NCBI GenBank assembly: GCA_963770755.1
Contig: CAVYQZ010000010.1
Span: 807,251-871,250, forward strand
From: Candidatus Aminicenantes bacterium
GTDB lineage: Bacteria > Acidobacteriota > Aminicenantia > UBA2199
DNA: 64,000 nucleotides
Direction of reading: 5' to 3'
Shown: piece after piece, positions 35,201 to 41,200 of the stretch
Position numbering within the stretch: the first letter of the stretch is position 1
Layout of the letters: every line of letters begins with the position of its first letter
Program-made: the position numbers

Positions 35201-38200
35201 TTGCATCTCCCGGGGTTGCGCGCCGATGTCCAGCACGATCGGGCTTCGGCTTCCCGGCACCAGCAGCTGCCTATGGATCGAATTGCCGTTGAACAGAAAT
35301 TCCGCTTCCATTTTCCGGTCGACATTCGTGGTGCATACCAGGTAATTCTTGCCCTTCAATGCATAATAGGGGAGAAAATAGCGTATTCGCGGACCCTGTT
35401 CGCGTTCGCACAAAACCAGCAGGGTTCCATTTCTGTTTCGCTCGACTTTTTCAAATAGTCCCTTCATTTCACCCAGGCGAATTTGACTTTGTATGATATG
35501 CCAGGTTCGTCGATCCTCATTTTGAAAATCGTGCTTGAAGAGCATGATCAGGCGGATCCCTTTCGCCGCCAACATCCGGGAGAAACTCGGATCGCTCAGT
35601 CCGGAAAATCCGCTCTCGACTTGAAGCTGGGGATGGCCGCTTAATCCGTAGTAATCGCCCAGGTAATAGATGTGGCCGTCATAGGTGTGCTTGTGGTGAT
35701 AGATGGTGAAAAGAGAATAATGGTTGGCATCATTCGGATAGGCTGGGAGTTCCAACAGGCCGAAATGGTCGGGATACTGGTCGAGAAGCCGATAAAATTC
35801 TTTGTGGACCGGCCGGTCATCATCCAATCGTTCCGGATATACCGGCCAGCGGATGCGTTCGGCAAAAACCAGAACCAGGGCCAGCGCCAGGACAATTTTT
35901 TTTTGGCGAAAACGCTTGAAAAAGTAAGAAAACCCGAAGGCGGAAACTGTAAAAAAGAGCAACAGCAGGACATATTCGGTGCGAATGCCCCGGCTGCGAA
36001 GCAGAAACGGGAACAGACGGGCCAAACTCTGAAAAAGATTGAAAAAAGGAAGACTGATCTGGCTTGAATAGAATTGCAGCAGCAGCCAGGTAATCGCGAG
36101 CCATTGGAGTTCCTTGGGAGTTTTTTCACGGATCACGTAAAGAAGCAGGGACAGGCTGAATAGAAACAGCAGGAGTGCCCAGTCGGAAACACGGTTCAAT
36201 ATTTGCGAAGAACCTCCCTGGAAAATGATGGGAAAAACCAGGGCCGGGACGATCAGAAAAAAAGAACAGGTCAGGGCCAGGGTTTTTTCCCAGAAATTTT
36301 TCAGGTAGGGCATGAAAGCGAGAATGAAAAAAATGAATATGGTAAGCCCCGGGCAGCGTGGGGACTGATTCCAGAAAATCCGGTTGAAAAACAGGAGCAA
36401 ATAGGACCAATTGCTGTAGAAGCTTACTGAGGTGCTGAACGAACCGGGCGGGATGGAATGGATTTCATCGACCACGGAAAAAGAAGTTTTCGGACTCATG
36501 TAGGGAAGAAAGATCAGGGTTACGGAAACGAGAAACAAGACAGCTGCCACGGTGATGAGTACCCAATACCGCCAGGGCATGAGGCCGAAGAGAATTTGGC
36601 GGACCAAAAAAAACATTCCCAGCGAAATCCCAAGAAAAAGGCCCAATGAGAGATCGAAAAGAAACTGGGAAAAAAAAGCGAAAGTGAACAGTAGCAGATC
36701 CTTTGTCTGTCCTCTTTTTAAAAAACGGGAAAAAAACAGCAGGGTGAGGGGAATCGGAAAACTGAACAGCAGATTTAGGTGCGGAATATTGTGAACGCGA
36801 AACGGCAGCAGAATATACAATGCCCCGACGATCCATGCAATCCAGCGTTCTTCAACCCATTCACGCGCAAAGCGATACGAGCAATATCCCGCCGCAATAT
36901 ATGAAATAAAGGTCAATAGGTTGTAGATGATATATACATTCCGGATATGAATGAGATAAAACGGCAGGACCAGCAAGGTCTGGCCGAAAAGATTGATCCC
37001 TGCTGTTAAAGTATGGGATAAAGGGAAAAGAATGGGAAGTTGGAATAAATTCAGGAGATCGCCCTGGGTGATTTTTTTCAGATTGGAAAACAGGATTGTC
37101 AGCGAAAGGCGAATGTCGCCATTTGAAGCAAAAGACAGCCGGTTGAACAAATGGGGCAGCAGCGGGTAGAGGATCAGCAAGGACACAAGGAAATAGGAGA
37201 AAATTATGCCCGTTTCAAGGCGGGTTTCATTGAGACGTTTTTCCATGCGTGGAATCACCGGGGCCAAATTGCCCGGGAAGCGGATTGATCGGGATTTTAC
37301 CATTCATTCTGCATGAGGGTAGCACAGCGGCGTTTTTTTTTCAATTGTCCTGAACGTTCGTTACGACTGTATTTTTATTCCCGTTTGCCTCGTGTCGAAG
37401 CGGAATTCAGTATGGTGCGTACGGTGAAATGCAATTATCCTCGATTGACATTTTCCGTTTTTTTCCCTATAATCCGAGAAAAATGGACAAGATAAATCCC
37501 GTAAAATCGAGTAGATATCTTTTGTTGCTTTTGCTGTTGGTTGCACTGCTTCTCCGCGTCCAGGCGTGGTTCCCCTTCAATGCCGTCGATGAGGATGCCA
37601 TCATGCAGATGACCTGGGGACTGCACCTCAATCCGCTTCCTCCGGGCATGCCCCCTCCGTTTCCCGGATATCCGTCCCTGTTCATGTATCTCAATTTTGT
37701 ACTCTCCCTGTTGTATCAGCTGATCCTTGTCTTTCTAGGAGTCTTTGCTTCCGCTGGTGAATACCTTGCCTCGCCTTTGGCCCGTGCCTTCACCTTCAAG
37801 GCCGGGCAGCTCCTGGTCGCTGTGATCGGCACTGTACATGTGGCGGTAATCTGGAAGATCGGTCGTGAATTCTTTGACCAGCGGATCGCCTGGCTTGCGG
37901 CCCTTATCGTGGCTTTCCACCCCCACCTCATTTTCAACGGCCACATTTTCAAGGCCGATGTTCCGCTGGCCCTATTCTTCGCCCTGCTCCTTCTCTATTC
38001 GCTCCGCTTTCTCAGAAGCCTGCAGACAAAGGATTTCTTTGCAGCCTGTTTCGTCGCCGGATTGACCGTCATTTGCAAGTTCAATGGCGCAATCGAAGTT
38101 CTCCTCATCCCGTTGATCCTGTGGCTTGTTCGAAAAAAGATGCCCGCCAAACGCTGCTGGAAACTCCTCCTCCTTTCTCCCCTTTTCGGCGTGCTAGGCT

Positions 38201-41200
38201 TTCTCGCCGGAGCCCCCAACTGGGTGGTCCACCCCGTAAAAAGTTTCCTTGCTGCTTATCGCCTTGCCTTTTTCAATTTTCGGGAATATGCTTTTTATGA
38301 TTCGTTTTCCTCAACCTACGGACGCTATTTTCCTGATCTGTGGCGAACCCTGGGACCCGTATTCGTCATTTTATTCTTTTTGGGCGTCCTGTCTGTTTTC
38401 CTGCGGCGCAAAAAAGAGGATTTGGTGATATTGCTTTCCCTGGTCATGTATTTTCTGGTTCAGGGCAGTTCAGACTATTATGGCACCCGCGTCATCCTCC
38501 CCCTGTACGGCGGAATCGCTTTGATCATCGCCAAAGCCGCTTTCCAGGACATTTATCCATTCTTGAAAAAGCAGTTGCTTCGTTCGGGCTTCACGATCGC
38601 AATTTTTGCGATGACAGCATTTTTCTCGCTGGGAAACATCCGCGATTCCGTTACGCAATTCAACCTCTGGAAAAGCACCTCAACTTGGGAGGAAACCCTG
38701 AATTTCCGGAATGAGCACATCCCAGCGTCTTTCCCATTTGGTCGTGAAATGTTCACTCCCATAAAGGCAGGGGACCGGGGCATTTGGGACATTTCCGATA
38801 TTCACGAAGGTTTTTTCCATGGCGACAATGCCCTCCCGTTCCTGAATACAGGGCTTTTGACCGAATATGTCCTCCGGCAATCCCGAGACGAAAAAACCAA
38901 GGAAAAGATTCGCGTCCGGCTTCGGGAATATCGCCCGTTCCACACGATTTCCAAACCGCAATTCGGACCCTGGGATGGGGATATCCTTTTCTGGTACCAT
39001 CCCAATCCCCGGATGCCCAATTATGGGCGCGGAAAGAAACGTGTGTACCTGCCCCGCCTGTATCGCCGCCATGTCGGGAACACCCTCTTCTATCCCCTTC
39101 AACCATATGAAAAGAATCCCGGTTTCTTCCCCTTGCAGGGTAATTTTGTCGGAAAGTGGCTCCTTTCTTCCAAGCCTTTGACGGCCATTTCATTCACTCT
39201 GTTCAGTCCGGATGCAAGCATGAAAGTGAAGGTGAAGGTCAACCATCGCGAAATCGTCCTTCAGGCTTCCCGGGGAATCGACGCACGCATCGTTCCAATG
39301 CCGCCTCCACTGCGTTTCCAAAAATCTCCTTTGTATCGACTTGAGGCGCAATTTCCTGAGGAAAACGCCAAGGCGTTTCTTTTGGTTGAGGAAGAGTCCT
39401 CCGTTCCAACTGCCTGGGATATCGATCTGTCCGATCCGGTTGAAGGAGATCCGCCACCACTCTTGTCCATGGATGACCCTCCCGCCTGGGTCAGGAAATT
39501 CTTTCGTCAGACCGGAATTGATCTTTCTCTCCTTGCCTTCACTCAAAAAACCACGCTCTGGGAGAATTCGCAACGGTCGCTGTTGCCTTTTTCCTCGGAA
39601 TGGATGGCCCTCGCGCCCGGAGTGTACCGCTGGGAGATGGAGACCGAACCTCTTTCCATAAAGGAAAGCGCGGGTGCCCCGCCTCCCCTGACGATCGTCA
39701 GTTGCGGTGAAAACGGCTTCGCAACCGATACATACGCCTGGGAGAAAACCGAAAGCGGGCGCTATGTGATACGTTTCCAGAACCTGCAGAAGAAAGTTTT
39801 TTTGCTGGCGAAAAGCGGTGATCTCCAGAAACAGGGTCTTCTCCTCCTTCGCCTCACCCTTTGCCCCGATTACCTGAATTCACTTCGTCAGGGAATGATC
39901 TTTCGCATGCAGTCGAAATCTGAAAGTGCCGCCAGGCTCGAGAAAAATGAGGAAAGGTAGGCTCTGCTGAAAGAACTGTAGGTTGCTCGATTCGGTGTCT
40001 TTCAATCCGGCGGATCGAACGAATGCCTGGGATTGCTGTGGCCCCGAGGCTCTCGTGGATCTCTTTTAAAGAACTGTCGAATGGAACGCCGGGTGCGGTG
40101 TACCGGTGCGATTTCACGGCATTTTCCATCGTCTGCGTCCGTTGTCGTCAAGGCTGAAAAAACCGCTTTTTTGATCGTCGATCCAAGATCCGTTGCCTGA
40201 AATGGTCGCACGGAAAAATTGCCCTATATCCCTATATATTATACACACGATGCCTGCCGACAAACGAAAGTGGATCGAAGTTTTAGCCTTGGTTTTACTC
40301 CTGATCGTTGCGTTGGCCATGCGCTTGCAACAATGGAATACCATCTCTCTCCCCGACGAAGCGGCATTGGTGAATATGACCCTGCACCTCCACGATACCC
40401 CTTTTCCCACCGGCAATTATCCCGGTTACCTGGGCTATCCGCCGCTTTTTCTTTTCGCGTGCCGCCGCAACCGAAAGTCGCTGTGGAAACCACTGCTCAT
40501 GGAGCCGGCTGCCTTGACGGTGGGCTTTTTCAGCGGCGCTCCCAACTGGATCGTCTATCCTTTCTTGAATATCGGCGAAGCCTATCGCTTCGTCGCCTAT
40601 CATTACTCCGGCTTTCGTTTTTTGGGAAGAAAAGTGGCGTATGCCGCTTTTCTGAAAACGCTCCTCGATAGTTTTGACCCGGCGTTTCTGGTTCTGTTTT
40701 TTATCGGGCTGCTGGCTCTCATCTTTTACCAGCAACGGACTGGAATCTTGCTCGCCACGTACATGGCTGTCTATGTCGCCATCCTGGGAAACACATCCTG
40801 TTTCGGAGAACGCATGGTGTTGCCCCTGCTGGCGGTCGTGGTTTTGATCATTGCCAACGTCCTGTTTCTCGGCTTGCCGCGTTTGTTGCATCCGGCAAAG
40901 CGCTGGTTGTCTTTTTATCATCTCGTCATCTGGACCTTGCTGGCTGCATATGCCGCAAACGGAATCCTGCAGAACATCCGCTGCTTCAATCTTCTAAGCA
41001 CCGTTTCCACCTATAACCAGGCTATCGATTACCGTTTTCACCATATCCCTTTCGAGTTCTCCATGGCCCGCGAAAACATGACTCCCGGCTATAGCGGCGA
41101 CCAGGGATTTTCCGATCTCGCTTCCATGCCGGCGAATTCTTTTTGGGGCCCTAAGGCCATGCCGTTCCTGTGTACCGGTCTTTTTACCAACTATATTCTC

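Follow-up and report, generated by a model that had tools for sequence, protein, structure and literature searches.

What does it take to express a large membrane glycosyltransferase when its promoter leaves next to no room for a leader ahead of the start codon? The question is raised by a gene in a stretch of 64,000 nucleotides (nt) from Candidatus Aminicenantes bacterium (contig CAVYQZ010000010.1 of assembly GCA_963770755.1), which was analysed at its full length and is referred to below as the window, all positions being counted from its first letter. The gene, a member of what we call family A (a distantly similar family B is treated further below), encodes an intact GT-C glycosyltransferase and is preceded by a TTGACA box, a 17-nt spacer (37451-37467), a TATAAT box and 9 nt (ccgagaaaa) that lead straight to an ATG (Table 1). 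We consider it likely that this gene has a promoter of its own, that translation would begin at the ATG next to that promoter and that its mRNA would be leaderless or nearly so.

The family-A promoter and the expected mRNA

In a consensus scan of the region between 26 and 44 kb, the family-A site is the sole promoter match with 12 identical positions out of 12, and the preliminary description of this locus, which had reported a textbook promoter ending 9 nt upstream of the ATG, was right to the base. When the entire window is searched for TTGACA-N17-TATAAT with at most one mismatch, six sites are found where 0.49 would be expected, a number reached in none of 100 shuffled sequences, and the family-A promoter is the only exact site among the six. 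Because of this excess, the organism can be said to use an Escherichia coli-like housekeeping promoter consensus, to which the family-A site is the best match.

The arrangement was compared in 12 distinct family-A loci, namely those of the window, L001, L002, L003, L005, L006, L007, L012, L014, L015, L021 and L022 (L numbers designate related loci). A -10 box of the form TAnnnT ending 6-9 nt upstream of an ATG or GTG is present in 10 of them, and all 10 have in addition a -35 box (TTGACT or TTTACT) 16-18 nt upstream of the -10. At least nine of the 12 positions match TTGACA/TATAAT in nine of the 12 loci, with L007 (5 + 3) falling just short, while the two loci that depart from the pattern are L003, in which the -10 reads TAAACC, and L015, in which it ends 14 nt upstream. 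GTG occupies the place of the start codon in L007 and L012. Orthologues with this promoter/start unit are 51-69% identical at the protein level, the spacer sequences differ between loci and the upstream neighbour is variously a divergent membrane-protein gene (window), a tandem family-B gene (L002 and L016) or a divergent sugar-nucleotide operon (L021). A Shine-Dalgarno sequence was looked for and not found before ATG 37483, where only a GAG is present, 4 nt upstream, and no GGAG-like motif was found between -10 and start in any of the family-A orthologues examined. The second claim of the preliminary description, that this start has no Shine-Dalgarno sequence and almost no 5' untranslated region (UTR), is thus well founded: because both promoter boxes and the 6-9 nt that separate the -10 from the start are conserved, whereas spacers and upstream neighbours differ, leaderless or near-leaderless expression appears to be the best explanation. 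The closest relatives, which are 68-69% identical, read TTTACT-17-TAAACT-7/8-ATG, and the perfect consensus and 9-nt distance seen in the window are therefore a local variant of a conserved design.

If so, RNA polymerase would recognise a housekeeping-sigma promoter and, judging from the position of the -10, initiate about 7 nt after it, at 37480-37483. The resulting mRNA would lack a Shine-Dalgarno sequence and have a 5' UTR of 0-3 nt, leaving its 5'-terminal or near-terminal AUG to be recognised by the ribosome through leaderless initiation. A -10 that ends 6 nt before the ATG places the A of that codon at the canonical +1. This would be the lineage's normal route for many promoter-proximal genes, other genes keeping AGGAG(G) sites. 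Where a B gene lies directly 5' of A, as in L002 and L016, read-through RNA from the upstream gene would carry the A start codon without a ribosome-binding site and A would be poorly translated from it, so that each gene of such B-A tandems would depend on its own promoter. Own-promoter dependence has been suggested to be an advantage of leaderless genes (PMC3160421).

Several points weigh against this scenario, or at least against its strictest form. The -10 ends 9 nt upstream of the ATG in the window gene instead of 6-8 nt as in its orthologues, which makes a leader of 1-3 nt likelier than a strictly leaderless end, and in E. coli extra 5' nucleotides lower the translation of leaderless mRNAs. 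Moreover, two gene callers chose other starts (37429 and 37522), and the orthologous loci are related to one another, so that the conservation counts given above are not independent events.

Alternatively, the gene might be expressed mainly from a longer transcript that is started further upstream and has an A/U-rich, unstructured leader, on which translation would proceed with no need of a Shine-Dalgarno sequence; the conserved AT-rich box would then serve translation and not transcription. Read-through transcripts must occur in L002 and L016, since only ~60 nt separate the end of the B gene from A on one and the same strand, and the sequence ahead of ATG 37483 is A-rich, which would suit this view. 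However, what is conserved is not mere AT-richness but a full geometry, comprising a -10 whose second and sixth positions are A and T, respectively, together with a -35 (TTGACT or TTTACT) 16-18 nt away. Since the gene that lies 5' of A in the window is divergent, the promoter must be located within 37304-37482, a segment in which the consensus scan found no other plus-strand candidate. Finally, other genes of this genome use strong AGGAG(G) sites, so recognition of Shine-Dalgarno sequences is intact. A longer transcript thus seems unlikely to be how this gene is expressed, and initiation at the promoter next to ATG 37483 is retained in what follows.

Three candidate start codons

The start codon itself is open to dispute, because ATG 37483 has competitors on both sides. 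On the 5' side of the promoter, at 37429, the reading frame contains another ATG, which had been overlooked in the preliminary description; the open reading frame (ORF) is uninterrupted from there, and a publicly available protein of 843 amino acids (aa), called on a Logan contig of 3.4 kb, starts at this codon. When the 825-aa product was looked up by exact sequence, no record of it was returned, the only version on record being that of 843 aa. On the other side, a 100%-identical NCBI protein (P0001, from a 1.03-Mb contig) has 812 aa, begins with MLLLLLVALLL and corresponds to a start at TTG 37522.

Comparison with orthologues favours the codon in the middle. The first hydrophobic helix of orthologous proteins is preceded by 10-13 residues that include a basic tail (MNSSISLRRLQLP, for example), and the product of ATG 37483 has the same N-terminal layout (MDKINPVKSSRY-LLLL). 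At the DNA level, 15 related loci have the homologous ATG or GTG 24-26 codons ahead of the alignment anchor, and in L001, L005, L007, L008, L009 and L014 an in-frame stop is found 1-4 codons 5' of it, which makes a longer N-terminus impossible at those six loci. Since orthologue N-termini, start positions and upstream in-frame stops agree, ATG 37483 would be the homologous and presumably the true start, and the 843-aa and 812-aa calls both disagree with the orthologues.

Translation from ATG 37429 would require that the promoter be a piece of coding sequence that matches the consensus by chance. Apart from the open frame and the Logan gene call, which are compatible with it, this start meets with several difficulties: it adds 18 residues that have no counterpart in any orthologue, orthologous loci carry the stops just mentioned and no ribosome-binding site precedes it. 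By simple arithmetic, a 12/12 promoter would be expected by chance ~0.02 times per window, and sites with at most one mismatch are 12-fold above expectation. We therefore give this start almost no credence. With TTG 37522, which has the identical protein P0001 in its favour, the promoter would be genuine and would produce an mRNA with a leader of ~40 nt. Yet no Shine-Dalgarno sequence was found ahead of the TTG, its product would be deprived of the positively charged tail that precedes transmembrane helix 1 in all orthologues, and the ATG or GTG conserved 6-9 nt after the -10 across orthologues would be left unexplained, all of which makes this start very unlikely.

The two calls are not isolated cases. 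P0007 begins MPFTC..., which is translated promoter region, and P0042 begins at an ATG within the family-B -35 box, ATGGACA. Several database N-termini of this GT-C family (the 843-aa and 812-aa versions, P0007 and P0042) are wrong, and the main value of the present finding is for that reason practical: N-termini are misplaced by gene callers that take no account of leaderless starts, and this has consequences for predicting the topology and signals of membrane enzymes.

A habit of the genome, and the family-B copies

Is this arrangement a peculiarity of the glycosyltransferase? It had been called unusual, a judgement that can no longer be upheld, because the leaderless-type layout recurs on unrelated genes of the window and on related contigs, and leaderless genes have been predicted in three of three Acidobacteria genomes, where they represent 9.7-19.4% of genes (PMC3160421). 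The layout is a common habit of this genome and not special to the GT-C gene; it is real but ordinary. This was established on the 64-kb window and ~100 kb of related contigs by taking all sites with at least nine of 12 matches and recording their distance to an ATG or GTG that opens an ORF of at least 100 codons. These distances cluster at 6-10 nt in the window, with seven sites (the seventh probably an internal false positive) against ~0.46 per distance bin, and at 6-7 nt in the related loci, with eight sites against ~0.36 per bin. Bias in the choice of starts is removed in a set of 23 ORFs whose start is forced, i.e. whose first start codon lies near the upstream stop and has no alternative within 20 codons. 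There, TAnnnT peaks at 6 nt (six of the 23 ORFs, plus one at 7 nt) against ~0.3 per distance elsewhere.

Individual examples are listed in Table 1. For the TatD gene, the start is confirmed by an NCBIfam alignment that starts at residue 8, while the start of the carbamoyltransferase is fixed because its Pfam alignment begins at residue 3. The secreted protein acquires, from ATG 44127, a new N-terminus that is a signal-peptide-like hydrophobic segment. Genes of the classical type coexist with these in the window, preceded by AGGAG(G) at 9996 (minus strand), 16695, 17530, 47994 and 60275 and by GGAGG at 44267. The two types meet in a divergent region of 140 nt (44127-44267), in which the leaderless-type secreted-protein gene on the minus strand faces a Shine-Dalgarno gene (GGAGG, 5 nt, ATG 44267). 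On related contigs, genes for secreted proteins of 586-591 aa that adjoin the A orthologue (L015:7190 and L002:7177, both minus strand) have TTGACA-17-TATAAT exactly 6 nt 5' of the ATG, and this is a second 12/12 leaderless-type unit in the lineage. Although the amount of sequence is limited, these results suggest that the uncultured class Aminicenantia belongs with the frequent users of leaderless mRNAs, which bears on the annotation of metagenome-assembled genomes. As to the GT-C promoter itself, it opens no new biological question.

Table 1. Positions in the window of the family-A gene, the family-B copies and other genes with a promoter-proximal start
Feature	Position	Strand	Basis or remark
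Family-A GT-C glycosyltransferase gene, 825 aa, intact	37483..39960	+	PMT_2, orthologue N-termini, AlphaFold2 (AF2) model
Family-A -35 hexamer, TTGACA	37445..37450	+	Read from sequence; part of 12/12 consensus site
Family-A -10 hexamer, TATAAT	37468..37473	+	Orthologues have TAAAnT or TAAACT at the equivalent place
Stub promoter: TGGACA (27867-72), 18 nt, TATAAA (27891-96), 6 nt (tagcca) to ATG 27903	27867..27896	+	
Chimeric stub: B residues 1-141 (27903-28316) and epimerase C-terminal tail	27903..28529	+	tblastn, blastp
Decayed B promoter: CGGAAA (40211-16), 18 nt, TATATT (40235-40), 9 nt to ATG 40250	40211..40240	+	
Family-B pseudogene	40250..42262	+	tblastn against the intact B gene of L002
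TatD gene: TTGCCA, 18 nt, (TG)TAGAAT, 6 nt, ATG 4322	4286..4324	+	Only start codon available in the ORF
HD-domain regulator: TTGACG-17-TATAAT-10-ATG	Start 4180	-	
Divergent membrane-protein neighbour: TTGGCA (27763-58), 17 nt, TACACT (27740-35), 6 nt, ATG 27728	27728..27763	-	
Carbamoyltransferase: TAGACG, 17 nt, (TG)cTATAAT, 7 nt, ATG 29536	29500..29538	+	
Membrane protein with 14 transmembrane helices: TTGACA, 17 nt, CAAAAT, 6 nt, ATG 32101	32066..32103	+	
Secreted protein: TTGACA, 17 nt, TACAGT, 6 nt, ATG 44127	44127..44162	-	

The window also harbours two damaged genes of family B, for which the reference is an intact gene of 816 aa located directly 5' of the A orthologue in L002 and whose relatives are 61-78% identical. 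Family A is 31-37% identical to family B. The first damaged copy, previously described as a chimeric stub with its own promoter, lives up to that description on both counts. Its promoter is homologous to those of the intact B genes in L002 and L016-L020; its residues 1-141 are the N-terminus of an intact B paralogue (70% identity in tblastn) and its last 77 aa (28293-28529) are 69% identical, in blastp, to the C-terminus of an HpnA-like NAD-dependent epimerase encoded 18 kb away at 46268-47236. The stub arose by a rearrangement that joined two unrelated gene fragments in frame. Its neighbours, a minus-strand gene for a membrane protein of ~700 aa and then genes for a hexapeptide transferase and a carbamoyltransferase, are syntenic with those of the intact B genes in L017, L018 and L020, and the stub is therefore the remnant of an ancestral resident full-length B. 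The second copy, which had been reported as degraded and as having a weaker promoter, is indeed both: only 3 + 5 of the 12 consensus positions are matched, an in-frame deletion of B residues ~68-212 has removed the PMT_2 core, a stretch at B residues ~511-569 no longer matches and a TGA interrupts the frame at 41351-41353. The notion that this copy consists of ORFs split by a frameshift was rejected, because both ORFs are in the same frame and are separated by the internal non-matching stretch and the TGA.

The intact B genes have a promoter of their own kind. In all six, TGGACA is followed after 17-18 nt by TATAAA or a close variant and, 5-6 nt further on, by the ATG (L002:370-417, and around 1460-1500 in L016-L020), and five of the six have a TGG ahead of the -10, a motif mutated to TAG in the stub of the window. 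In TATAAA, the final A replaces a T that is normally near-invariant, and it has been kept across six genomes despite diverged spacers. A promoter of the extracytoplasmic function (ECF) sigma type was considered on account of the TGGACA box and was rejected with regard to the ECF consensus, since the -10 is the Pribnow-type TATAAA.

It had been proposed that the conserved promoter/start unit reflects a duplicated unit that included its promoter, and that this could be checked by aligning the 60 nt upstream of the three starts. In comparisons of these segments, the B copies match: the stub is clearly similar to the intact B gene of L002 (z = 6.8, ungapped) and weakly homologous to the decayed copy (z = 3.3). 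In contrast, no B promoter resembles that of A at the nucleotide level (z at most 1.6). The proposal therefore stands within family B, where six intact orthologues share the unit, but not between A and B, and the three copies do not represent one recently duplicated unit, as the level of protein identity between A and the B copies also shows. Homology of the A and B promoters was thus rejected, only the layout of motifs being common to them. A recent block duplication (24.7-27.7 kb versus 34.4-37.2 kb) was likewise rejected as the promoter carrier: its terminal part, 27304-27719 versus 36822-37237 (80% identity), does not extend beyond the divergent neighbour gene, within which it terminates at 27719 and 37237 respectively, and so it reaches neither promoter. 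L021 and L022, the closest A orthologues, were searched upstream for remnants of B, and none were found. A scan of the genome contigs returned one locus only.

These comparisons bear on whether the promoter/start module might have been specially selected in the glycosyltransferase family and predate the A/B split, or whether it is a by-product of the genome's habit. It is true that every intact gene examined, whether of family A or of family B, has kept the layout and that family B keeps an unusual, invariant version of it (18-nt spacer, TGG extended -10, TATAAA). However, the lack of nucleotide homology between A and B promoters is difficult to reconcile with common inheritance, and the layout is also found on genes for TatD, the carbamoyltransferase and membrane and secreted proteins. 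As unrelated genes share it, the resemblance between A and B is explained by genome habit alone, and special selection seems improbable. A more ambitious proposal, only slightly easier to entertain and in our opinion doubtful, combines a leaderless module that has been with GT-C genes since before the A/B split, under selection and maybe insulating, with the idea that Aminicenantia is an unrecognised leaderless-rich lineage with an E. coli-like consensus. If this were true, the module could insulate each glycosyltransferase from the read-through of its tandem neighbour, only own-promoter transcripts being translated.

The product, its neighbourhood and comparison with known systems

The family-A product is a GT-C membrane glycosyltransferase of the PMT_2/ArnT-like kind. 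It matches Pfam PMT_2 with 55.2 bits (cut-off 26.1), it displays ~9 hydropathy segments, which together with the model correspond to ~9-13 transmembrane helices, and it has an invariant Asp36-Glu37 in the first external loop, after the first helix. An AF2 model of moderate confidence (predicted local distance difference test score of 64.7, but 70-90 in the membrane part) was matched by Foldseek to STT3, ALG12, ArnT, PglB, EmbA/B and Pmt4, with a probability of 1.0 for STT3, ALG12, ArnT, PglB and Pmt4 and target template-modelling scores of 0.4-0.56 over ~420-490 columns. In this model, the C-terminal half (~400 aa) is made of beta-sandwich domains; two of them, at residues ~540-800, have weak fold matches to collagen-binding, carbohydrate-binding-module-like and cupin/jelly-roll proteins. 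No NCBIfam equivalog scored above its cut-off, the sole match being Agl23 (23 bits, cut-off 126), and no PDB sequence matched the family profile at E<0.01. Orthology with ArnT, the 4-amino-4-deoxy-L-arabinose (L-Ara4N) transferase, or with Pmt, the protein O-mannosyltransferase, is thus not demonstrable. Homologues of family A are 51-69% identical, and the named ones come from 'Candidatus Aminicenantes' genomes assembled from metagenomes. Genes for ArnC/PgfS-like polyprenyl-phosphate sugar synthases of family GT2 lie close by, at 24670 and 34379, which is consistent with a lipid-linked sugar that would serve as donor for the GT-C product.

These synthase genes are part of a 3-kb block that is present twice (24668-27719 and 34377-37237, 73-80% nucleotide identity) and that encodes, besides the GT2 enzyme, a membrane protein with nine transmembrane helices. 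The two copies have decayed in complementary ways. In copy 1, the membrane-protein gene (ATG 27728, minus strand) has a TAG at codon 36 (27623-27621), which is an Arg codon in copy 2, and in copy 2 the GT2 gene (34379-35116) lacks ~66 C-terminal residues, corresponding to membrane helices that are present in copy 1 (24670-25605). Three polytopic proteins in this glycan-biosynthesis neighbourhood, encoded at 32101-34092, 35138-37246 (minus strand) and 49570-51156, have 14, nine and nine predicted helices, respectively, and no Pfam or NCBIfam match; they may be polymerases, flippases or GT-C-like enzymes. Further away, dnaA, dnaN, recF, gyrB and gyrA follow one another on the minus strand (5104-13746), so that the window is chromosomal and at or near the replication origin. 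The GC content falls to 0.34 at 10-14 kb, and dnaA is divergent from a glutamine synthetase gene (13786).

As an enzyme, the family-A product shares with ArnT (GT83), Pmt (GT39), EmbB and STT3/PglB the PMT_2 domain, the polytopic architecture, the Asp-Glu pair of the first loop, the fold and an ArnC/PgfS-like neighbour. It differs from them in having neither an NCBIfam equivalog nor a sequence relative in the PDB, and in its C-terminal half of ~400 aa made of beta-sandwich domains. The layout is reminiscent of EmbB-type enzymes with their C-terminal carbohydrate-binding modules.

As regards expression, the leaderless mRNAs that have been studied include that of lambda cI, transcribed from PRM, and mycobacterial transcripts that begin with AUG or GUG. 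In these, a 5'-terminal AUG or GUG is read directly by the ribosome, and the GTG found at the same position in L007 and L012 is in keeping with this. Unlike them, the gene of the window probably has a leader of 1-3 nt. A literature search combining Aminicenantes and leaderless genes found no paper linking the two in the library searched. Genome-wide predictions offer close parallels. Leaderless genes are marked by a TAnnnT motif about 10 nt ahead of their start, and their share in cell-envelope categories is lower, although not zero (PMC3160421), and in the 'group C' genomes defined with GeneMarkS-2 the Pribnow box lies 6-8 nt from the start (PMC6028130). The window and the related contigs resemble these predicted TA-led genes and group C genomes (Actinobacteria, Deinococcus-Thermus and Acidobacteria) in the TAnnnT placed 6-8 nt ahead of the start of a transcription unit's first gene, in the lack of a Shine-Dalgarno sequence and in the coexistence of Shine-Dalgarno-led genes. 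In contrast to high-GC TA-led groups with a bare TAnnnT, however, the Aminicenantes lineage is of medium GC content and has the full TTGACA/TATAAT promoter, which in the family-A gene of the window stands 9 nt from the start.

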